Virus genome (UHGV): UHGV-0316333 | Strand: one strand, 5' to 3' | DNA length: 10,171 bases | Source of the DNA: a virus | Shown here: positions 1-10,171 of the stretch, piece after piece | Layout: each line of letters starts with the position of its first letter | Numbering within the stretch: position 1 is the stretch's first letter | Notes under the pieces: generated by a model | Seen by the model: only the letters and a program-made list of their open reading frames with translations | Told to the model about the DNA's origin: nothing | Databases searched by the model: none | Translations under genes and position numbers: made by a program

Positions 1-387
1 GGATAATACTCTTGCAAATTTAACTCGCACTTTTTGCAAGGTTTTATAGAAAAGTATTTCATCTGTCGAATTTTGATGCTTATATAGTAACATTAAGTTT
101 TGGCTTAGAGTGTGGATCAAATCCAATATTAAATGTTGTGCTTGCTTGGATTTTATATCTAATCGTAGTTGCTCTGTTTCCTCTTTGATTGATTCTAAGC
201 TTTTGATTACTGCTTGTGAAACCTCTGAATCGAATGGTGCAATTAACACCCTTTTACCTTCAAGGTAGCTGAAATATTTCTCAAAGTTTTTTTTATCCGG
301 GTCAGATATAAATGGAATCAAATCTTTAGCTGTGATACCCGAGATAGATGCGAAATTTGCTAAACCACCAATTATTTCTAAAAACAA
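1..387 (-). CDS. Hypothetical protein, N-terminal ~129 codons (partial; continues beyond the left window edge)
   Basis: Minus-strand frame is open from position 435 to position 1, with no tta/cta/tca triplets in plus frame 1 across 1..387. A TTG at 387..385 sits 6 nt downstream of a perfect AGGAGG (399..394 on the minus strand). It is missing from the ORF track only because no stop lies inside the window. Very AT-rich; the translation (MFLEIIGGLANFASISGITAKDLIPFISDPDKK...) is not recognisable to me. Start codon is uncertain (alternative TTGs at 408 and 435). Confidence 0.4.
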   Translation of the reverse strand, partial: MFLEIIGGLANFASISGITAKDLIPFISDPDKKNFEKYFSYLEGKRVLIAPFDSEVSQAVIKSLESIKEETEQLRLDIKSKQAQHLILDLIHTLSQNLMLLYKHQNSTDEILFYKTLQKVRVKFARVLS

Positions 388-822
388 TTTCGGCCTCCTA
401 GTGACCAATTTGATAATTAGACTCTTCTTAAACAACTAAGTATCGAAAATTAGACGTTTTCATTGGAGTCAGGATGCTTTAGATAGTACTACGCATCGTT
501 TAGGCTGCGCCACTACTAGATTTGCAACATTACGAAAATTTAGTTATCTGGTTAAAATGACTATAATCACTCAGTAATAATTTGAATGCTAAGCATCTCC
601 ATGTTCACCCGACCAGATTGTGTTTATAACAATTCCTGGTATTAGGCTATATTCCCTTCATGAATAAAGTCCGCTTCTGGCACATAGCAGCCCTAGAGAC
701 AGTGGCGTAAAGTCATGGAGAATCGGTGGGAGGATATTCAGTTTCATTCATGCCGAAATACGGTAAAATCTATAACAGATAGAAATCATTCAATATTCGC
801 ACTATTGGAAGTTCACCAGCCA

Positions 823-863
823 GCCACAGCACGTTCTTGCATACAACGTGCCTGCGGTTTTTG
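823..863. repeat. Copy A of a ~40-bp hairpin-containing direct repeat (stem GCACGTT / AACGTGC, 9-nt loop CTTGCATAC, then GGTTTTT)
   Basis: ccacagcacgttcttgcatacaacgtgcctgcggttttt matches 1846..1886 (ccgcagcacgatcttgcatacgacgtgctacggtttcattt) at roughly 34 of 40 positions in the same orientation, with the loop sequence conserved. Confidence 0.5.
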
Positions 864-953
864 AGACCGGTCCGATCATCAAACGAAACATAAAATTAAT
901 TCACATTATGAGGAAAAGTATCTTTTTTGTACTATGTAAATTCAAAGACTTAG

Positions 954-1823
<870 letters not shown>

Positions 1824-1845
1824 GTCTTTAAGTGATAAGCATAAA

Positions 1846-1886
1846 CCGCAGCACGATCTTGCATACGACGTGCTACGGTTTCATTT
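1846..1886. terminator. Putative bidirectional intrinsic terminator between the convergent GIY-YIG gene and pin (copy B of the direct repeat)
   Basis: Stem CCGCAGCACG (1846..1855) pairs with CGTGCTACGG (1869..1878) at 9 of 10 positions around a 13-nt loop. It is followed by TTTCATTT on the plus strand and, on the minus strand, by TTTATGCTT. It lies in the 57-bp gap between the stop codons at 1821..1823 (plus) and 1881..1883 (minus). Confidence 0.45.
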
Positions 1887-2435
1887 ATCTCCGACCGGAA
1901 ACTTCTTATACAGTGTCGATATACCAACATCATAGATGATCGCCACCTTCTGGCGAGGAACGCCTGATGTAATTAATCGCCCGGCCTGCGCCCATTGTTC
2001 TGGTGTAAGTTTGGGACGACGTCCACCAATTCGTCCCTGTGCGCGAGCAGCTTCCAGTCCAGCTTTTGTTCGTTCAACAATCAGTTTTCGTTCCATTTCA
2101 GCCAAGGCCCCCATCACATGAAAGAAAAAACGCCCCATCGGTGTGCTGGTATCAATAGCATCCGTCAGGCTGCGAAAATTAACGCCACGTTCGCGCAACT
2201 CCTCAACCAGAATGACCAGATGCCGCATACTACGCCCCAGCCGATCCAGCTTCCAGACGACCAGAGTGTCACCTGCCGATAATGTCCTGAGCAGTTTTTT
2301 CAGTCCCGGCCTTTCGGACTTTGTACCGCTTATCTTGTCTTCAAAAATAAGCTCGCATCCTGCACAGTTCAGCGCATTACGTTGTAGATCTGTGTTCTGG
2401 TCATTTGTTGACACACGTACATAGCCAATAAGCAT
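1881..2435 (-). CDS. pin: Site-specific DNA invertase Pin (Hin/Gin/Cin/Pin serine recombinase family)
   Basis: Translation begins MLIGYVRVSTNDQNTDLQRNAL... and contains the conserved VVWKLDRLGRS and GRFFFHVMGALAEMER blocks and a C-terminal helix-turn-helix (VAIIYDVGISTLYKK). A GGAG lies about 9 nt upstream of the ATG at 2435. The ORF-track start at 2471 would add 12 residues not found in this family. Confidence 0.93.
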   Translation of the reverse strand: MLIGYVRVSTNDQNTDLQRNALNCAGCELIFEDKISGTKSERPGLKKLLRTLSAGDTLVVWKLDRLGRSMRHLVILVEELRERGVNFRSLTDAIDTSTPMGRFFFHVMGALAEMERKLIVERTKAGLEAARAQGRIGGRRPKLTPEQWAQAGRLITSGVPRQKVAIIYDVGISTLYKKFPVGDK

Positions 2436-2489
2436 GGTAGATCTCCCTGACAAAAGCAGGAATGATGCCATTTGATCGTTATTTCTGCA

Positions 2490-2515
2490 TTTTCATAAAC
2501 GTTGGTTTGGGAGAA
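2490..2515. repeat. Inversion crossover site (pix/hix/gix-like), pin-proximal
   Basis: TTTTCATAAACG-TT-GGTTTGGGAGAA is a 26-bp imperfect palindrome with an AAAC..GGTTT core of the kind seen in hix and gix sites. Its inner half-site GGTTTGGGAGAA is the exact reverse complement of the inner half of the site at 4086..4111. It lies ~55 bp upstream of the pin start. Confidence 0.75.
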
Positions 2516-2845
2516 GCCAGATATATCATTCAGCGAGGAGCTAATGCCAATGGTGCATGGATTCGCTGGTCAGATGGTGCAATAGAAGTCTTTGGAACGG
2601 GTGGGTCTAATGATAATGGACTGGCTAAAGTCGTTTACCCAATTGCACTGCCTAAACTTTCACGTTTTATCAGTATCGCGGAAAGAATAAGAACAGATTA
2701 CGAGAGCACACCTAATAATGTTCACGTTTCAATGATCGTGGATGATCAGGTAACAAATACCGGTTTTTATGCCCGCTGCCAGATGTACGACGGCAGACCA
2801 TCATCAAATGCTTTTTCCTGGAGGGTTTATTGTGCGCCTGTTTAA
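2504..2845 (+). CDS. Alternative tail-fibre C-terminal cassette, silent in this orientation and predicted to fuse to the constant N-terminus after inversion
   Basis: The plus-strand ORF 2462..2845 reads N-V-G-L-G-E across the crossover site, while the expressed fibre reads N-L-G-L-G-E across the other site. Plus-strand codons from 2504 are in phase with minus-strand codons ending at 4100 under the inversion mapping x -> 6601-x. No promoter or start codon of its own is expected. Confidence 0.5.
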   Translation, partial: GLGEARYIIQRGANANGAWIRWSDGAIEVFGTGGSNDNGLAKVVYPIALPKLSRFISIAERIRTDYESTPNNVHVSMIVDDQVTNTGFYARCQMYDGRPSSNAFSWRVYCAPV

Positions 2846-3029
2846 TCCAGTTACTTTGACTGAAGTAATCCCCGGTCTTCATGATGTGACCGGGGCTATT
2901 GAATTACCGGAGGACAACTGGTTTTTTACTATGACAGAAATTCCTCAGGGCATGGAGCTAACAATTAATGAGAAAGGGGAACCAATATTGATTGAGGTTA
3001 ATCAGTCTCAAGGAAAGCAGGCCAAATAA
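2832..3029 (+). CDS. Putative short alternative tail-fibre assembly protein (about 66 aa, possibly degenerate)
   Basis: Part of ORF 2769..3029. An in-frame GTG at 2832 overlaps the end of the alternative fibre cassette by 14 nt, and its 3' end converges on and overlaps the minus-strand tfa (2998..3029). Function is inferred from position only, and it is much shorter than the 201-aa tfa. Confidence 0.3.
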   Translation: MRLFNPVTLTEVIPGLHDVTGAIELPEDNWFFTMTEIPQGMELTINEKGEPILIEVNQSQGKQAK

Positions 3030-3603
3030 TATCAGGCGCGGTGCTGGTATCTGTTGCCGTCACCGCGTCAATGTAATCCAGCACGGCGTTAAGCCGGGTT
3101 GTTTCTGCCTGCATCAGCTTCCGTCCGGCCTGTAATTTCAGCTGAATCAGACTGATGGAAGCCATTGCAGCATCAATCAGTGACTGACGCTGTGCTTCTG
3201 CCGCGTCTACTGCGGCGCTATGCTGTGCCTCAGTATCGGTCACCCATTTCTCACCATCCCATTTATCGTATGGTGTTAACGGGGCGATAGTTGTGGTATT
3301 TTCAGGGTAATCACCCGGAGCTGTGATTTCTTTTGACTCTCCCGTTTTGGTGCTATAGACGATTTCACCGCGATGGTCTGGCACATATTCCCATGAGTTA
3401 AAATTTGCAGAACGACAGATAGCATAACCCACCTTATATGTGCCAGGGGCATCTAAACAGGAATATGCAGGAATACCGACACCAATGGCAAGATATTCAG
3501 TTGAAGCTGAAATATATTCCTGCGTCTCACTATCATAGTTATAAACGGTAATATCCCCCGACTTTGTAGCAATAAGCTCACTATTTAATATTGCTTTATC
3601 CAT
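2998..3603 (-). CDS. Tail fibre assembly protein (Tfa family, lambda Tfa / e14 TfaE-like)
   Basis: 201 aa. The C-terminal motif ...DTSTAPDIIWPAFLE matches the conserved Tfa ending (lambda Tfa ...DTSTAPDIEWPAVP). It sits immediately downstream of the fibre gene, whose stop overlaps its start at 3603. Confidence 0.85.
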   Translation of the reverse strand: MDKAILNSELIATKSGDITVYNYDSETQEYISASTEYLAIGVGIPAYSCLDAPGTYKVGYAICRSANFNSWEYVPDHRGEIVYSTKTGESKEITAPGDYPENTTTIAPLTPYDKWDGEKWVTDTEAQHSAAVDAAEAQRQSLIDAAMASISLIQLKLQAGRKLMQAETTRLNAVLDYIDAVTATDTSTAPDIIWPAFLETD

Positions 3604-4388
3604 TATGCTGCTCTCACGATATAGTTAAATGCAATGTTTCGAGGGCGATTCTCTGATGCTGTTGGTACAACCCTGGATGCATCAAAACTGAATCCTGTGT
3701 AAGGGGTATTTTTTGTTTCATATGTGCCTAGGTTATTATAGATATTTCGCGTAGTTTGAGATGCTAAGGCAAAAGCACCAGTACCAGTCTGTAACCTGAA
3801 AGTTGCTGTATCAATGGTGCCTTTAACTTCATTTATAAATCCTGTTATATTCCGAATGGTATCTCCCTGTGACGAAAGCAAGCTACGGTTAGTATCAATC
3901 CCTCTTCCATCATCCCAGCCACGAATAAACTCACCGCGTAAATCAGGCAATTTATTTGTCGGGTAAACCTTTGCCAGTTCCGGGTATTCTTCAGCAGAAA
4001 AAGCCGCCCCGTTGCATTTCAGCCAGCCTGTTGGCGGAGTGGCGGAAGGCCACGGAACAGGCACGCCAACGGGTAATGCCGAACCTTCTCCCAAACCAAG
4101 GTTTTCGAGAGCCGTTTTCACCGTGCCATCCGATTTGATATCACCAAACGGATTCTTGCGGCTTAACAGCAGTGCACGAAGCGCGGTAAGCAGCTGGTCA
4201 TGCCGCCCCTTCTCCAGGCTGGCACCGGATGCCTCCACCACGCTGCAGAGTTCTTCCTGCAACATATCAAAGTAGTCATCATCCAGATCGGTGGCAGGTG
4301 TGCCAGTCTTGGGGTTACCACGGGTAAAACCGTTCTTACCCGCGCCGAACTTATCCTTCTGCGCGGTTTTCGTGTCTATACGATGCAT
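3603..4388 (-). CDS. Tail fibre protein (constant N-terminal part outside the invertible segment, variable C-terminal part inside)
   Basis: 261 aa. The C-terminal ...[15 protein letters not shown] is the typical ending of phage tail-collar fibre domains. The crossover site at 4086..4111 falls inside the coding sequence at ...[11 protein letters not shown].... Confidence 0.85.
4086..4111. repeat. Inversion crossover site (pix-like), distal, inside the tail fibre gene
   Basis: TTCTCCCAAACC-AA-GGTTTTCGAGAG. The reverse complement of the site at 2490..2515 is TTCTCCCAAACCAACGTTTATGAAAA, so the first 14 nt are identical and the conserved GTTT core follows. Confidence 0.75.
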
Positions 4389-4391
4389 GGA

Positions 4392-4976
4392 TTACTCCGG
4401 ATATTTAAAAATTACGTAGGTATGCGACGGGCAGAGTTTGTTAAGCACACATTCGACAACGGTGTCGCCCCAGATACGCAGCGCGGAATCACAGGGATCG
4501 CCACATGTCATCCAGGTGGTGTTGGTGGCGGCTGGCATGTTGACCTGCCAGTAATACCGCCATTCTGGCGCATTCACCGCGTCAGTACAGGCCGATGAGC
4601 AGGTGAACGTGCTTTTGTCGTATCGCGTGATGTTGGCATCTGGTCTGCCCAGGGCAGCAAGCTGTGCAAGATAAAAATTCTCGTTGATGCCGCCCGCCAG
4701 GTTAACCTTCGCATCCAGCCGTTGCTGACGCTGGCGGAGGGGCTGTGTCCCTGCGGGAATACATTCATCCGGCAGGCCGCACAGACGCTCCCAGCGGTTT
4801 ATCAGTTCAGTGGTGGTGCGCGGATCCAGCTCCCGCATCAGGGCATCCGCACGCTGATGAACGCGGGTTAATGACGGTGCCGCACCGGCAATCGCCGGAT
4901 CGCTGGCTGACCACGCCGGACCAGGGGGCAACAGTGCCGACAACAGACGGATGTAATCATCGTTTGTCACGTCCAT
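4392..4976 (-). CDS. ymfQ: Tail/baseplate protein, YmfQ-like (Mu gp48-like, DUF2313)
   Basis: 194 aa with the N-terminal ...[12 protein letters not shown]... block typical of this family, sitting directly upstream of the fibre gene as in e14 and Mu. The gene symbol is assigned from synteny and length, not from a search. Confidence 0.7.
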
Positions 4977-6025
4977 GAAATCGTCCCCAGAACCGCCAGT
5001 TCGTTTTTCGCAATGGAGATATTGTCTGCCGGTGCAAGCAACTGATGGCTGTATTCCCCGTTCGCACCGGAAATCGCTTCACTGATACGCGACACCTTCA
5101 GCTCTCCCTGCGGATAACCATCACGCAGCAGGAACGAACGCAACTCCGCGGTAATGGCAGCCCGTATTTCTGGTGTGTCCGGCGTCACGCGGATATGAAA
5201 ATCCACCGTATGTGCCACCGGCCTGAATACATACAAATCAGAGCCTGCCACCGGGGCCAGTGGCCCGATATGTTGTCTTGCTGCCGTTTCCGTTGATTCT
5301 TCCGGAATGGGATTAATCAGGTCACTGCTGGCAATCATCACACCGACAGTTCCCGTTCCCATCCAGTGACGGTATGTCCATGCGCGGGTAATGCCGGGCA
5401 CTTCTTTAGCCCAAACGACATAGTCCCCGTCAGCCCCGCCCTGAGGCGTCCAGTAATACCGCTCAATGACGCGGGCGCGCCACGTTTCCATCTCTTCAGT
5501 ATCAAATCCACCTGTCAGGGTATCTGCCACGCCGGAAGACGGCAGACCATTCACCGGCGTGACCAGGATTAATGACGTACCGTCGTCAGCGTTACCGACC
5601 GCGCCTGCACTTGAGCAGGCGATCGGCACGCGCAGGACACCACCGGAGCTGGTTGCATCGGCAGTTGCCGTGTACTGAACCAGGTCATCGCGCTGAATAA
5701 CACTCCCGGCGGTCACCTTCAGGCCATCGCTGACACCTTCCCAGCGCATATACCCACTGGCAACCGTGGCTCCCTTGCGCGGACACCGTTTCATCGCAGC
5801 ATGTCGCGCCAGCCAGGACTCATCGCACAGGTCAGGCAGCATGTTCATTGCCAGATAATCGATGTAACCGTAAACCGTATGCAGCGCCGCCGCATACACC
5901 TTTGCCCGCACGTCTTCATCCATGCGCCGGAGCGTGTCGCTGACGTCCAGCCTGGCGAACAAATCGTTACGGAGCATACTGATATTTTCTGCCAGCGTCG
6001 GGCGCTGAAATTCACTGTCCGCCAT
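4967..6025 (-). CDS. Baseplate J-like protein (Mu gp47-like)
   Basis: 352 aa. Its end overlaps the downstream gene by 10 nt, indicating translational coupling, and its position between the gp46-like and gp48-like genes matches the Mu order. Confidence 0.75.
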
Positions 6026-6440
6026 GCGTTATCGCACTCCACAGATCATCAAAAGAAATCATTACCGGTCCGTCACGACGCCAGAGGGTGATACTGTTAC
6101 CCAGTTCATTAATCCCGGTGCGGCGGATATCCAGATCAATACGGGACACCACGCCGTCATCAATCATCCATTGCAGGCATTCGCGGATATACCCCCTTAC
6201 CGTCAGCACCAGCTGATTGGTCAGTTTGCTGCGCTGAAGCAGCCACAGTCGGGAGCCGTAACGGTCATTCTGTACCGCAGGCCAGGTATCCCCCCACCAT
6301 CCCATCGGGACGTCGGCGTTGTCATCAGGCTCCGCCCGCCGCCAGGTAAACAGGGAAATCACCACGGCGCGGGTCAGCGGATCCAGCGGTGCGCTGGCGC
6401 AGGTGCGTTTACCGTTCACCGTCAGCCACAGTTCCATCAT
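6012..6440 (-). CDS. Baseplate protein, Mu gp46-like (phage GP46 family)
   Basis: 142 aa, coupled to the upstream gene by a 4-nt overlap (6437..6440) and to the downstream gene by a 14-nt overlap (6012..6025). Assigned by position and size. Confidence 0.6.
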   Translation of the reverse strand: MMELWLTVNGKRTCASAPLDPLTRAVVISLFTWRRAEPDDNADVPMGWWGDTWPAVQNDRYGSRLWLLQRSKLTNQLVLTVRGYIRECLQWMIDDGVVSRIDLDIRRTGINELGNSITLWRRDGPVMISFDDLWSAITHGGQ

Positions 6441-6985
6441 GCCTCCATCGCTTTATCAGGTTTGTCGGTGTTACTGCCCTGACCGTTCTCTCTGTGACGA
6501 TGCCCGTTATAGGCAAGCCGCATCGCTGACATGGTGGTGCCGCTGGAGTCGCACAGGTCTTTCACCTGTCCTGTCACTTCCAGGTCCATTTCAAAACGTG
6601 CTTTAGGTGAATTGCGAAACGTGATCGTTTTACCTGCACCGTCCACCACGATCCCCTCCCGGGTCAGCGTCACGGACTGCCCCTGATCGTCATAGACAGC
6701 CACCTCACCCGTCTGCAGCCCTTTCAGGCGGTAGCGCCGGTCCGACACCGTAACAACCACCGCATGAGAACGGTCGCCATCCGGAAACAACACCACCGCT
6801 TCCGCACCGCTGTTTGCCCTTGCGGTAAAACCGTAGGGTTCAAGATGTTCAACCCCGGCTTTGGGTTCACCGGCAATCAGGGACACATCCACGGTCTGAC
6901 ATTTCGTGGCGGCACTGATGCTTTTCACCACTGCCCGCCCAATCAGGCCGAGAAGTTGTCGCTGCATGGCTTCAATCGTCCTCAT
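6437..6985 (-). CDS. Baseplate assembly / spike protein (Mu gp45-like, P2 gpV-like)
   Basis: 182 aa. ATGA-type start/stop overlaps with both neighbours place it in the same operon; assigned from synteny. Confidence 0.65.
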   Translation of the reverse strand: MRTIEAMQRQLLGLIGRAVVKSISAATKCQTVDVSLIAGEPKAGVEHLEPYGFTARANSGAEAVVLFPDGDRSHAVVVTVSDRRYRLKGLQTGEVAVYDDQGQSVTLTREGIVVDGAGKTITFRNSPKARFEMDLEVTGQVKDLCDSSGTTMSAMRLAYNGHRHRENGQGSNTDKPDKAMEA

Positions 6986-8064
6986 CAGAACGGGTCCTCC
7001 TGTACTCTGGCTTTTTTCTTTTTCCGCGCGCCGGGGTCTTCAGGTTCAGGCAGATAAGCATCAGGCGGGCCGACACGGATTTCCGTCAGGGTGCCGTTCT
7101 GGTCCTGAGTAAACGTGACTTCCGAAACAAGCAGTTCGGTATTGTCAAAACCACAGACCGGATCAAAGACAATCACCCGCTGGTTGGGCTGCCACAGCGT
7201 ACCGTTACCCTGTCGCCAGCCCTGCACCACATAGGTGGTTTCATCCGTCCGCGCCGCCCGTTGCCGGGCTTCAAAGTCAGCACGCGCAATACAGCCTGCC
7301 CCCGTGGCCTGCCCTGTCTGCCTGATATACATCGGACGGTAACGGGCAATAAATGCGTCCTCTGTGCGGGCCCGCAGCGCGGTGGTGGTGGCCTCACCGA
7401 AATCATCGTCGTTTCCGGCACGCTGCCCCGCCACCTGGTAAACAGAAAACCGCTCCCGGATACTCTTCTCCGTATCGCAGGAAAGGATGTTTTCCCCGAG
7501 TACCAGCGCAGTATGTGCCCGCGTTGAGCCAATACCACCAATCACCAGCCTGCCGTGCGGGTCGTCGTAAGCCAGTGCCTGCTGCTGACCGAGTATTTTG
7601 TTGATTACCTCAATCACCGTTTCACCGTGATCGGGCTGGACGTCAGGAATAACACCCGACGGCGCACCGTTGTTCACCACCTCAATGCCGAAAGGCGCAG
7701 CAAGCGCCTGCGCAATCTGTACCAGCGCTCGTCCGTTAAACTGTGTCGGTTCGGCTGCACAGTCAATCAGGTCAGCCGTCAGACTACGTCCGGCAATACC
7801 GGTGCTGACCGAACGGGCATCGTAACGAACGGGCGTCGCCTCCACCCAGCCGGTGATCACCAGCTCATCACCAATCAGCACTTCCACTTTTGAACCGTTT
7901 TTAATGCGCGGCTGAAGCGTGGTGATACCCCCATCTCCCGGCCACTGGCGGGTGATCTCCACACTGAAATCCCGCGCCAGCCGTTCAATACCGGCACCGA
8001 TGCGCACCGATGTCCAGCCATTCCACTCCCGGCCATTTACCCGTAGCGTGACGTTATCGTTCAT
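6985..8064 (-). CDS. Tail/baseplate hub protein (Mu gp44/P-like, phage late control D family)
   Basis: 359 aa, following the DNA-circulation-like gene as in Mu. Lys-rich C-terminal tail (...ARKKKKARVQEDPF). Confidence 0.7.
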   Translation of the reverse strand: MNDNVTLRVNGREWNGWTSVRIGAGIERLARDFSVEITRQWPGDGGITTLQPRIKNGSKVEVLIGDELVITGWVEATPVRYDARSVSTGIAGRSLTADLIDCAAEPTQFNGRALVQIAQALAAPFGIEVVNNGAPSGVIPDVQPDHGETVIEVINKILGQQQALAYDDPHGRLVIGGIGSTRAHTALVLGENILSCDTEKSIRERFSVYQVAGQRAGNDDDFGEATTTALRARTEDAFIARYRPMYIRQTGQATGAGCIARADFEARQRAARTDETTYVVQGWRQGNGTLWQPNQRVIVFDPVCGFDNTELLVSEVTFTQDQNGTLTEIRVGPPDAYLPEPEDPGARKKKKARVQEDPF

Positions 8065-9389
8065 TGCACTGGCACCTTCAGAGGGATCACCGGCACAAAG
8101 CCGGGATGCGTAATGGCATTACGCCGGATAATGTCCGCGTCACGCGCCGCGTTATCAAACCAGGTCGCCGCCAGCACCAGCGCGGGTAAAACCTCATCCG
8201 GTGTGCGCTGAATGATCCGTGCAGACTGTTCAAGGCGCGTGTTGATATCCGCATTCAGATCTGCTTTCACCCGGCGCAGCGCCAGAAACAGCGCATCACT
8301 GGTTGTACGGGACAACTCCTTATCAATTGCCGTATTCAGTGTGTCGCGAATGTCAGTCAGTTCTTCCCACGTCGGCAGGTCAACCGTGTTTTTCACCGCC
8401 GGTGCATTGTTCAGTGCCGGATGCGTGACGGAAGGCCAGCCAGTGCTCTGCGCAGGTGTTGTTGCCTGCTCCACTGCGGCATTCTGCATCACCGCGGAAG
8501 TTGTTGGCGCAGGCAATCGGGTGACGGCATACGCCGCTTCGCTGATTGCGGTCGTACGAAGGGTGCTGGCAACCACGTTACGCTGCTGCGTCGCCGTGGC
8601 GGTGGTTTTACTGTCCGTTTTCCAGACGCCGCGCGGTTGCAGATCGCTGCCGAGGCTGACACCGGAAAGCGTTTTGATCATGGTGACCAGGTCGCTGGCG
8701 TTACCATAAAGGCGTTTCCCGGTACGCCACATTTTCTGCACCTGCTCAACGAAATTTTTGCCTGACGATGGCGGCGGCAGAAGTACCGAGATATCCCCCT
8801 GCAACAGCCTGGCGACATCCGATACGGCAGAATCCACCACTTTCATCGCATCAGAAACATACCCAAGCATTGTGCTGGCATTACCGACGACGTCGTTCTG
8901 CACAAAATCTGCCACGCCATCGATACTGAAACCACTGAAACTGTCACTGATGCAGTCATCCAGTGCAGAACAGGATGACATCAGCGTCTGCGCCGTCGCC
9001 GCACCTGATGTGGGGTAAGAGAGTTCTCCCGCTTCGACAAACTTCAGGTCAAAGCGGACAATACGCCCTTCACTCTTCGATGTGCTGACCCGAACCTCCC
9101 CGTCAACACAGACTTTCAGCTCACCGTATGTCGGATGGACAAGCGTGCCGGGACCGGGTTTATTCAGCGCGTCAATCAGGCGATCGCGCTGGTCAAAGCA
9201 GTCATCTCCCACCACATAAGCCGTGATGGACGGGCGGAAAGTGACTTTTCCCAAATCTTCGGTATAGGGTTTGTCGCGGTTCGGGTATTCGTGCGTTTCC
9301 ACACGACGACCGGTTCCCGCATTTTCTTCTTCAACCTTAAACGGCACACCGCGAAATGACGCGTCCTGAAGTCTGTCTTTCCACGTCAT
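8061..9389 (-). CDS. DNA circulation protein-like tail protein (Mu gp43/N-like)
   Basis: ORF-track frame 8061..9431. I prefer the in-frame ATG at 9389 (MTWKDRLQDASFRGVPFK...), which has a GGAG 5 nt upstream. The longer form would begin inside a terminator-like hairpin with no Shine-Dalgarno. Confidence 0.7.
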   Translation of the reverse strand: MTWKDRLQDASFRGVPFKVEEENAGTGRRVETHEYPNRDKPYTEDLGKVTFRPSITAYVVGDDCFDQRDRLIDALNKPGPGTLVHPTYGELKVCVDGEVRVSTSKSEGRIVRFDLKFVEAGELSYPTSGAATAQTLMSSCSALDDCISDSFSGFSIDGVADFVQNDVVGNASTMLGYVSDAMKVVDSAVSDVARLLQGDISVLLPPPSSGKNFVEQVQKMWRTGKRLYGNASDLVTMIKTLSGVSLGSDLQPRGVWKTDSKTTATATQQRNVVASTLRTTAISEAAYAVTRLPAPTTSAVMQNAAVEQATTPAQSTGWPSVTHPALNNAPAVKNTVDLPTWEELTDIRDTLNTAIDKELSRTTSDALFLALRRVKADLNADINTRLEQSARIIQRTPDEVLPALVLAATWFDNAARDADIIRRNAITHPGFVPVIPLKVPVQ

Positions 9390-9404
9390 ATAAACTCCGT
9401 ACAT

Positions 9405-9426
9405 AAAAAATCCCACCGGAGTGGGA
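9405..9426 (-). terminator. Intrinsic-terminator-like hairpin plus U-run between tape-measure and gp43-like genes (possible attenuator)
   Basis: On the minus strand: TCCCAC-TCCG-GTGGGA (6-bp GC-rich stem, 4-nt loop) followed directly by TTTTTT, 24 nt downstream of the tape-measure stop codon. Confidence 0.3.
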
Positions 9427-9449
9427 CTCATTAACAGATTAATTTTTCA

Positions 9450-10171
9450 TTACCAGCCAAAGCGCGTATAGCCAACATCATGGCTGACATCAAAACCGCT
9501 GGATCGCGTTTCCATAACCCGCATACCCGGAGGCGAATTCACAAAAGAGACCTTGATCTCACCATCAACTTTTGGCGCAGAAGCTTTGTTAATCATGAAG
9601 GGATTCGGGCCTGTGGCATCGGAGGCGTTGTTTGACTGAGCCAGATCCACCGCCGGATAAGGTATGTATCCCCGCGCCGGTATTCCCGTCCCATAAGCAT
9701 CATAAGCACCCGCGCCCCACTGCGCCGAGTTAATGGCATCGACCGTGTCACCTGAACTGTCGGTAAACCACTCAATAATTGGCTTCAGCTTATCCCACAT
9801 ATCCTGAAACCACTTAACAACCGGTCCCCAGTTATTGATCACCATCCCCAGCGGCGACCAGGCAAAAACCTTCTTCAGAAGTTCCCAGCCAACCTCAAAA
9901 TAAGGACTAATGGTTTCCCAGAGTTTCTTAAAATAAGGTCCGACAACATCCCAGTTAGTGATAATTAATCCCGCAGCCAGGGCAATCGCCGTCGCAATCA
10001 TGCCAATCGGCGTCATCGACATGATCCTGCTGACGATACTGATGGCACTGCCCACGCCCATCAATCCCAGTTTCAGAATCGCAAGACCGGCAGCAAGCCC
10101 GACGACGCCGCGAATAACCCGGGGATTTTCATCCGCAAACTTCGTGAATTTCTCCCCCAACTCCCCCAGCC
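9450..10171 (-). CDS. Tail tape-measure protein, C-terminal portion (partial; continues beyond the right window edge)
   Basis: The frame stays open to the window end. The translation shows hydrophobic Gly/Ala-rich segments followed by a Trp-rich region (NWDVVGPYFKKLWE..., NNWGPVVKWFQDMWDKLKPIIEWF), typical of tape-measure C-termini, and it sits directly upstream of the N/P/baseplate block. Confidence 0.65.
   Translation of the reverse strand, partial: LGELGEKFTKFADENPRVIRGVVGLAAGLAILKLGLMGVGSAISIVSRIMSMTPIGMIATAIALAAGLIITNWDVVGPYFKKLWETISPYFEVGWELLKKVFAWSPLGMVINNWGPVVKWFQDMWDKLKPIIEWFTDSSGDTVDAINSAQWGAGAYDAYGTGIPARGYIPYPAVDLAQSNNASDATGPNPFMINKASAPKVDGEIKVSFVNSPPGMRVMETRSSGFDVSHDVGYTRFGW

Follow-up and report, generated by a model that had tools for sequence, protein, structure and literature searches.

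The Pin/P-segment inversion switch of the e14 prophage has been described in Escherichia coli, as cited in PMC4272514 and PMC12529663. In strain K-12, where the segment carries stfP-tfaP opposite tfaE-stfE, mixed segment orientations are seen in clonal cultures, and qPCR and PCR have been used to measure inversion by the PinE invertase (PMC12529663). A related arrangement is that of phage Mu, in which the constant N-terminal part of the tail fibre lies outside the invertible G segment, two convergent cassettes of a tip and an accessory gene (S-U vs S'-U') lie inside it, and the Gin invertase is encoded just outside. The H segment of Salmonella is inverted at 26-bp sites by Hin, a recombinase of the same subfamily with a Fis enhancer around 100 bp from one site (PMC3798978), which flips a promoter and in this way switches between two flagellin genes.

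The DNA analysed here (the window) is a 10,171-nucleotide stretch of the virus genome UHGV-0316333, and it very probably holds a site-specific inversion switch of the Pin type (Hin/Gin/Cin/Pin family) at the tail-fibre end of an E. coli prophage, a temperate myovirus resembling e14 and SfV. On sequence grounds, the switch is the long-known Pin/P-segment system of E. coli e14-type prophages and is nothing new as a switch. Neither 26-bp crossover site differs at any base from its counterpart in K-12 e14, the gene order (ymfQ, fibre constant part, segment, pin) is the same, and the exchange point lies in the same codon, inside the residues NLGLGE. The invertase, a PinE orthologue, is 94% identical to its K-12 counterpart, TfaE is 89% identical, and the fibre constant part together with ymfQ shares 96% nucleotide identity. 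The ymfQ/Mu gp48 gene is located at 4392–4976, and Mu gp48/47/46/45-like genes lie upstream of the fibre gene. The pinE annotation in RefSeq relatives is correct, and RefSeq also labels ymfQ at near-identical loci.

Compared to K-12, the segment is shorter (around 1.6 kb, vs 1797 bp reported in PMC12529663), the window has the opposite orientation to the MG1655 reference, and the gene next to pin is PD-T4-3, a known defence gene, in place of mcrA. A full Mu/SfV-like tail module is present, and the prophage of a near-identical strain is approximately 36 kb, compared to the 15-kb K-12 remnant. Of the two cassettes, only the one comprising tfaE and the currently fused tip (hereafter the E tip) is homologous to K-12; the alternative tip (B tip) shares 22% identity with that of StfP, and a 65-aa ORF is found where K-12 has the 137-aa TfaP. 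As one side is homologous and the other unrelated to the stfP-tfaP content, the switch is, judging from these alignments, a cassette variant of the e14 system, and what sets it apart from K-12 is the second cassette, with its predicted gp53-like tip of another kind and a conserved 65-aa gene, and no recognizable Tfa. The tail module, from position 4085 to the end of the window, shares 97.5–97.8% nucleotide identity with the Shigella serotype-converting phages SfV, SfII, SfI and SfIV, the value for SfV and SfII being 97.7%. The orf21 of SfV comprises the same constant fibre part and an identical 26-bp site, and the tail genes in the window are equal in length to those of this viable phage. The homology with the four phages breaks off precisely where the site has its inner edge, and they differ in having a single fixed tip and Tfa cassette, no invertase, and the int-xis and gtr genes next to it.

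The left, pin-proximal crossover site is located at 2490–2515 (TTTTCATAAACG-TT-GGTTTGGGAGAA) and matches the pin-proximal site of K-12 e14, while the right site, within the fibre gene at 4086–4111 (TTCTCCCAAACC-AA-GGTTTTCGAGAG), matches both the K-12 ycfK/stfP site and the SfV orf21 site. They are inverted relative to each other and consist, as expected for Hin/Gin/Cin/Pin sites, of imperfect 12-bp half-sites around a 2-bp core; core to core, the invertible segment spans 1598 bp (2502–4099). A repeat finder returned a 20-nt inverted repeat with arms at 2497–2516 and 4085–4104 (95% complementary, 1568 nt between them) and no additional long inverted repeats. In the 10,171 bases of the window, the 12-mer TTCTCCCAAACC has exactly two occurrences, one on each strand, which are the inner half-sites; only 1 of 500 shuffles of 1800–4500 attained a 15-nt exact inverted repeat whose arms are separated. 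The TT and AA cores on the plus strand become identical when both sites are read in the same sense. A preliminary description of this DNA had proposed two inverted Hin-family-like 26-bp sites around 1.6 kb apart, perfect inverted repeats as inner half-sites and compatible TT/AA central dinucleotides, all of which was borne out. The half-sites also resemble those of Mu gix and fall into one TTNTCNNAAACC-like family with them; the core dinucleotide differs (TC/GA in Mu).

Other types of inversion system fitted less well. Systems with multiple inversions, such as the p15B Min system or the R64 shufflon, need more than two crossover sites, and only the expected half-sites were found in and around the segment: a search of 1800–4500 allowing up to three mismatches yielded, besides both inner half-sites and the right outer one, a single partnerless match at 3248–3259, while the left outer half-site, having four mismatches, falls outside this limit. 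A promoter-inversion switch (Hin H segment or fimS type) was likewise rejected, as promoter-like matches in 1750–4500 numbered 6 vs 4.7 in shuffles, and the segment is taken up by two convergent coding cassettes, each with its 5' end at a site. Here it is a coding C-terminus and a downstream gene that would be exchanged, with no promoter moved, in contrast to Hin. The promoter and terminator scan of the same region gave nothing above shuffle expectation, including no recognizable promoter for pin or for the plus-strand ORF 2462–2845, and an Rfam scan of the window gave no family match.

The fibre gene, encoded on the minus strand (3603–4388), is the last gene of a Mu-like baseplate operon. Its constant N-terminal part of around 96 residues (4100–4388) lies outside the segment, and its variable C-terminal part (3603–4085) is the E tip, a phage tail collar domain (Pfam Collar, E=5.9e-15) whose proximal 80 or so residues are nearly identical to K-12 StfE and whose distal part is divergent. 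The start codon of tfaE (2998–3603, minus strand), encoding the tail-fibre assembly protein of this tip (Pfam Caudo_TAP, E=1.7e-30; the K-12 identity given above), overlaps the fibre stop codon in the motif TAATG. In Mu, the G segment is larger (around 3 kb), the constant part longer (around 170 residues), the fibres are much longer and the tips are unrelated, although the layout of a constant part outside and two convergent tip and accessory cassettes inside is shared. The right site is crossed by the fibre ORF and the left site by the plus-strand ORF 2462–2845, which there reads FINVGLGEARYII; in both ORFs the TT core occupies codon positions 2–3. In-silico inversion at the cores gave an uninterrupted fibre of 210 residues instead of 261, in agreement with the matching frames noted earlier for the two ORFs.

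The unfused B tip (2516–2845, plus strand; 109 residues and a stop codon) is part of ORF 2462–2845, in which it follows a non-conserved 18-residue leader. It matches phrog_2557 (E=3.4e-21), at the C-terminal end of virion proteins, and weakly Pfam Gp53-like_C (E=0.0088, under the family cut-off). Salmonella and Enterobacter have homologs with 60–63% identity, and 48 alignment columns are invariant; among sequenced phages, only matches of 31–35% identity were found. An AlphaFold2 model built from an eight-sequence alignment was poor (mean pLDDT 60.8, pTM 0.47) and all-beta, which would fit a gp53-like tip and proves nothing. The 65-aa ORF that follows (2832–3029, plus strand; GTG start, preceded by GGAGG) overlaps the tip stop codon and is presumed to be the accessory gene of the B tip. 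It matches phrog_5400, of unknown function (E=1.5e-25), but no Pfam or NCBIfam family, and showed no similarity to TfaP. Its match covers just positions 1–66 of the 145 in phrog_5400, which raised the idea of a truncated Tfa; this was rejected, as 123 homologs from Enterobacterales, in several genera and down to 61% identity, are nearly all 57–73 residues long. The proposal that inversion swaps the fibre C-terminus and its assembly partner holds for the in-frame tip exchange, with the qualification that the partner in the silent cassette would be this conserved ORF, which matches no Tfa family.

The invertase gene pin (1881–2435, minus strand) adjoins the segment on the outside and begins 67.5 bp from the centre of the left site. 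It encodes a 184-aa small serine DNA invertase with the expected architecture, comprising an N-terminal catalytic domain with a serine nucleophile and a C-terminal helix-turn-helix (Pfam Resolvase, complete, E=1.4e-51; HTH_7, E=1.5e-12), which agrees with its earlier description as full length with intact conserved blocks. Pin shares 173 of 184 residues with K-12 PinE (11 substitutions) and 140 of 181 with Mu Gin (77%), and aligns end to end with the Gin structures 3UJ3 (E=1.2e-92) and 4M6F (both about 1e-92), with Ser9 conserved. Relative to both PinE and Gin, it carries the substitution E117K in helix E. In Hin, the enhancer is contacted by basic residues of helix B (K47, R48 and K51), whose counterparts here are presumably K46, K47 and R50. 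The full-length enzyme and its closeness to PinE fit a Pin-driven switch, and Pin itself is presumably active in this genome; the attribution is not exclusive, as inversion of this segment in trans is also reported for another invertase, PinQ (PMC12529663).

Two candidate Fis sites of a recombinational enhancer were located on the minus strand at the 5' end of pin, around 100 bp from the nearest crossover site. The proximal one (2399–2413, TGTCAACAAATGACC; consensus match) is centred at +30 of pin and the distal one (2351–2365, GTGCAGGATGCGAGC; matching KNNYRNNWNNYRNNM) at +78, so that they are 48 bp apart and lie 96.5 and 144.5 bp, respectively, from the centre of the left site. The motif is degenerate, with 9 matches in 680 bp, and a 48-bp pair by itself would count for little; what gives the pair weight is that its positions agree with those in Mu. 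Both positions are also matched in K-12 pin and Mu gin, and in Mu the start codon, nearest site and two Fis-consensus sites are identically spaced, including the distance of 144.5 bp to the distal site. Inversion here would presumably require Fis.

From the established behavior of the family, Pin dimers would bind both 26-bp sites and, together with Fis on the two-site enhancer in the 5' part of pin, form an invertasome, in which cutting at the 2-bp TT/AA cores, rotation and religation would invert 2502–4099. In this family, invertasome assembly depends on Fis and on supercoiling, and the core is cleaved by way of a phosphoserine intermediate. As the sequence shows, the first 96 or so fibre codons, from 4388 down to the right site, keep their place as the last part of the baseplate operon. 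In the present orientation they are fused to the collar-domain tip, with tfaE behind it, giving the 261-aa fibre, and after inversion they are fused in frame to the other tip (all-beta in the model), with the 65-aa gene behind it, giving the 210-aa fibre.

Genome comparison shows that the opposite orientation is present in a near-identical prophage and that both are common across E. coli genomes. The complete genome of E. coli VTB97584v contains the whole window with 13 mismatches in 10,171 bases and with 2497–4104 inverted, the alignment falling into the blocks 1–2516 (plus), 2497–4104 (inverted) and 4085–10171 (plus). The breakpoints are within 2497–2516 and 4085–4104, inside the predicted sites, and bear out inversion at the sites assigned in the preliminary description. 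The junctions read as exchange at these sites would leave them, the B tip is fused to the fibre constant part, and the fused 210-aa ORF is annotated as an intact CDS. When the window was flipped in silico at 2502–4099, it aligned to NZ_CP178707.1 in one piece (100% of the query, 99.7% identity). The switch is thus real and recently active. Orientations were also counted with junction probes (at least 80% coverage) in 5,426 complete genomes, where the E tip was fused to the constant part in 517 and pin-proximal in 941, and the B tip was fused in 11 and pin-proximal in 69; both cassettes were accordingly found in both positions. The VTB97584v prophage possesses head, tail, lysis and lysogeny modules, and the prophage carrying the switch is apparently a complete SfV-like myovirus; as the tail sheath gene of the near-identical prophage is frameshifted, virion production is not assured.

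It is improbable that the locus is a locked relic, in which sites and invertase persist through recent ancestry, the segment is static here, and differences between strains are old or due to other enzymes. Such a state would accommodate the 11 substitutions relative to PinE, including E117K, and the skew of the B tip (69 to 11), which is possible from rare switching and clonal sampling, and the orientation difference between strains could stem from another invertase acting in trans. However, the oppositely oriented prophage differs at just 13 of 10,171 bases, none of them in the pin-coding DNA, so the inversion must be very recent relative to any decay; the sites, cores, candidate enhancer, aligned Ser9 nucleophile and HTH domain are all intact, and in K-12 measurable switching occurs at the same sites with an enzyme of 94% identity. 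Less credible still is the idea that the orientation difference between genomes stems from RecA-dependent homologous exchange across the short inverted repeats, or from an assembly artefact, in place of site-specific recombination. The breakpoints can be placed only within the shared 15–20 bp, and their placement alone thus fits either mechanism, but the identical stretch is just 15 bp, which is too short for efficient RecA-dependent exchange. The repeats are moreover exact matches to characterized invertase sites with a dedicated invertase alongside, and each orientation occurs in hundreds of independent complete genomes; if an assembler had chosen between two orientations present together in a culture, that too would mean that switching takes place.

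A role in the lysogen, instead of or besides the virion, is also unlikely, if marginally less so than a locked relic. Here, the product of ORF 2462–2845 would be made as a free protein, mask surface receptors and block the adsorption of other phages. Kirigo et al. (2025) reported that P-segment inversion in K-12 creates StfE2, consisting of a short stfE leader and the gp53-like StfP tip, and plasmid-produced StfE2 was reported to cut T2 adsorption, an effect that relied on overproduction (PMC12529663). ORF 2462–2845 has the same architecture (18-residue leader and gp53-like tip), most database homologs of the B tip are in the 126–127-aa form, and a known defence gene, PD-T4-3, lies beside pin. 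On the other hand, identity between the B tip and the StfP tip is only 22% (E=0.11), the scan gave no promoter-like site ahead of the ORF and AGGA lies only 0–3 nt from its ATGs, and the 126–127-aa forms may merely mirror gene callers and orientation bias. The leader is unconserved at the protein level among homologs, as would be expected if it were merely the opposite strand of the region that holds the pin promoter and 5' UTR, and the dependence of the published effect on overproduction also argues against this role. If the pin-proximal position were nevertheless not silent and a free B-tip receptor-binding domain were produced in the lysogen, the strong excess of genomes with a pin-proximal B tip (69 vs 11; for the K-12-type tip, about one third) would point to selection acting on the host and not on the virion.

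With the locus taken as a functioning Pin switch, the two tips would be expected to bind different receptors, so that induced virions would have two host ranges. The e14 switch has mostly been studied in a 15-kb remnant, and its presence also in complete SfV-like myovirus prophages means that fibre switching can affect virions there. The locus further documents a second, widespread cassette type, comprising a gp53-like tip and a 65-aa gene, and the orientation counts supply reference values against which the recently claimed effect of P-segment orientation on resistance to other phages can be tested. The significance as a whole is small: the inversion switch is a textbook one, and this clean copy of it, which apparently works, sits in a common family of E. 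coli prophages.

Two 26-bp crossover sites were found in the window, one close to the invertase gene pin at 2490-2515 (TTTTCATAAACG-TT-GGTTTGGGAGAA) and the other inside the fibre gene at 4086-4111 (TTCTCCCAAACC-AA-GGTTTTCGAGAG), exactly where the preliminary description had placed them. The inner half-sites are perfect inverted repeats as claimed, the 12-mer TTCTCCCAAACC having exactly two copies in the window, one on each strand. A repeat finder returned a 20-nt inverted repeat at the same place (arms 2497-2516 and 4085-4104, 95% complementary, 1568 nt apart), and among 500 shuffled versions of 1800-4500 a single one reached 15 nt of exact inverted repeat between separated arms. The fibre ORF (3603-4388, minus strand) spans the right site, and the plus-strand ORF 2462-2845 reads FINVGLGEARYII over the left site. 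In both ORFs the TT of the core falls on the second and third codon positions, and upon core-to-core inversion in silico the 261-aa fibre became one of 210 aa with no interruption, confirming the in-phase junctions proposed for both sites.

The pin gene (1881-2435, minus strand) lies just outside the invertible segment and encodes a 184-aa serine recombinase with Resolvase and HTH_7 domains, which aligns end to end to Gin crystal structures (E about 1e-92) and retains the Ser9 nucleophile, in agreement with its earlier description as a full-length invertase with conserved blocks. Pin shares 173 of 184 residues with PinE of E. coli K-12 and 140 of 181 with Mu Gin. In helix E, residue 117 (codon at 2085-2087) is Lys, in contrast to the Glu of both K-12 PinE and Mu Gin; three residues away is M114, a position altered to Val in the sequences of the Gin crystal structures. 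E. coli VTB97584v has pin DNA identical to that of the window, Lys117 included.

When the window was compared by megablast to 5,426 complete E. coli genomes, 3,759 had a match, at loci annotated as ymfQ, phage tail protein, tfaE and pinE; the K-12 MG1655 counterpart is the cryptic prophage e14. Both 26-bp sites of e14 are identical to those of the window at every base, and K-12 TfaE has 89% identity to the TfaE encoded here. Because of the identical sites and the closeness of Pin and TfaE to their e14 counterparts, we identify the feature by sequence comparison as the already known Pin/P-segment inversion system of e14, in which the second cassette is here a variant. The finding is genuine and its first interpretation was essentially right. 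Descriptions of P-segment inversion date from the 1980s (Plasterk and van de Putte 1985, cited in PMC4272514). Kirigo et al. 2025 (PMC12529663) reported the same inverted repeats in the P segment, 30% inverted molecules in wild-type cultures and 49% with extra PinE, and locking of the segment upon pinE deletion; among 562 deposited genomes they found the P segment inverted in 33%. The sites in the window are thus identical, and the enzyme nearly identical, to those of a system with measured activity. Inversion here would presumably be carried out by Pin itself and not by an invertase acting in trans, such as PinQ.

Members of this invertase family depend on an enhancer bound by Fis at two sites, which usually lies ~100 bp from one of the crossover sites (PMC3798978). 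A scan with the classical degenerate Fis consensus gave candidate sites at 2399-2413 (centre at +30 of pin, 96.5 bp from the left site centre) and 2351-2365 (centre at +78, 144.5 bp). Consensus matches are also present at +30 and +78 in K-12 pin and Mu gin, and the enhancer-to-site geometry of Mu equals that of the window to the base pair. In enhancers of this family the two Fis sites lie 48 bp apart. As the Fis motif is degenerate, the matches support an enhancer but do not prove one; inversion here would probably require Fis.

The inverted arrangement was built in silico and used as a search query, which VTB97584v (NZ_CP178707.1) matched in a single piece with 100% coverage and 99.7% identity. 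The window aligns to this genome over 1-2516 (plus), 2497-4104 (inverted) and 4085-10171 (plus), with 13 mismatches in all and none in pin, and the junction sequences are exactly those predicted from exchange at the sites. The flanks retain the mismatch at 2501/4100, and this places the exchange within 2502-2516, core included. The exact inversion product thus occurs in nature, bearing out a working switch at the predicted sites. An oppositely oriented copy so little diverged over 10 kb, with identical pin DNA, makes it unlikely that the switch is a locked relic. RecA-dependent exchange or an assembly artefact is likewise an unlikely source of the orientation difference, since the identical stretch is just 15 bp and each state is found in hundreds of independent genomes.

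Strains STEC1575 and ECOR29 have the same orientation as the window (98% identity). Among genomes with at least 80% coverage, junction-specific probes found the currently fused E tip (3603-4085, minus strand) joined to the constant fibre part in 517 and next to pin in 941, and the alternative B tip (2516-2845, plus strand) in 11 and 69, respectively; each cassette therefore occurs in nature at both positions. The orientation bias varies with the cassette, which may reflect biased inversion, clonal sampling or selection.

The second cassette of K-12 e14 is stfP-tfaP, whereas the window has the B tip and a 65-aa ORF instead. The B tip matched phrog_2557 (E=3.4e-21) and, weakly and below threshold, Pfam Gp53-like_C, and shares only 22% identity with the K-12 StfP tip (E=0.11). 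Homologues in Salmonella and Enterobacter have 60-63% identity with 48 invariant positions, while none above 35% identity was found in sequenced phage isolates; the predicted structure (pLDDT 60.8) was too poor for use. The 65-aa ORF (2832-3029, plus strand), with a GGAGG-GTG start overlapping the tip stop codon, occupies the slot after a gp53-like tip where a tail-fibre assembly gene is expected. It belongs to phrog_5400, a small-protein family of unknown function conserved across Enterobacterales, and showed no similarity to TfaP and no match to Pfam, NCBIfam or Tfa families. A truncated Tfa was rejected, as its 123 homologues (Escherichia, Enterobacter, Salmonella, Citrobacter, Hafnia, Xenorhabdus and Erwinia; lowest identity 61%) are nearly all 57-73 aa.

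Overproduced StfE2, the pin-proximal chimera of a leader and a gp53-like tip in K-12, is reported to block T2 adsorption (Kirigo et al., PMC12529663). By analogy, ORF 2462-2845 could act in this way, having the same architecture, and nearly every database homologue of the B tip is 126-127 aa long, which corresponds to the ORF found next to pin. However, the leader is unconserved at the protein level, no promoter-like site precedes the ORF and the B tip is just distant kin of the StfP tip, making such a role improbable.

Leftward from the right end of the window, the minus strand encodes the end of a tape-measure protein, a DNA-circulation protein, Mu P-, gp45-, gp46-, gp47- and gp48-like baseplate proteins, the fibre with a phage tail collar domain and a Caudo_TAP tail-fibre assembly protein. 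The tail ORFs have lengths equal to those of the corresponding ORFs of SfV, a viable Shigella phage, and 4085-10171 has 97.5-97.8% nucleotide identity to SfV, SfII, SfI and SfIV. This identity stops at 4085, the exact inner edge of the crossover site. SfV has no invertase and a single tip cassette, yet orf21 keeps an identical 26-bp site (U82619.2, about 5001-5027) encoding NLGLGE. Because the Shigella-phage homology ends there and SfV keeps the site, the crossover site is also a module boundary for tip exchange. The E tip is a mosaic when compared with K-12 StfE, with an almost identical collar region and a different distal part: conservation covers the first ~80 aa past the site and the final ~15 aa, flanking ~80 unrelated aa (within 3603-3860, minus strand) that look in the alignment like a hypervariable insert inside a conserved collar-domain frame. 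The E-tip cassette has 88-91% nucleotide identity to stf/tfa of HK97 and P2-like phages.

Where K-12 e14 has mcrA beside pin, the window has a defence gene (1050-1823, plus strand) encoding a LEM-3-like GIY-YIG protein (PADLOC model PD-T4-3, E=3.5e-140). It is flanked by a 28-nt direct repeat (824-851 and 1846-1873, 89% identical), the second copy of which forms a stable hairpin just past the pin stop (minus strand, -23.6 kcal/mol, z=-3.4), and homology to STEC1575 starts at 852, at the first copy, suggesting a cassette-exchange junction at a terminator-like element. Positions 1-1000 are AT-rich (33-41% G+C vs 55-60% in the tail genes); the minus-strand ORF 1-387 runs past the window end and had no match in PADLOC, and the following ~660 bp held no convincing gene. 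This left flank extends in VTB97584v to an HNH endonuclease gene and copies of IS1; STEC1575 carries AraC-family and NACHT-domain genes in its place.

While e14 is a 15-kb remnant, the near-identical VTB97584v element is a prophage of about 36 kb that carries genes for the head, tail, lysis, regulation and an integrase. Its tail sheath gene is annotated as frameshifted (17525-19020 of the extracted NZ_CP178707.1 locus); unless the frameshift is a sequencing error, this prophage could not make contractile tails, even though its fibre switch seems to be active. The two tips of the Pin switch would bind different receptors, giving induced virions of two host-range types.
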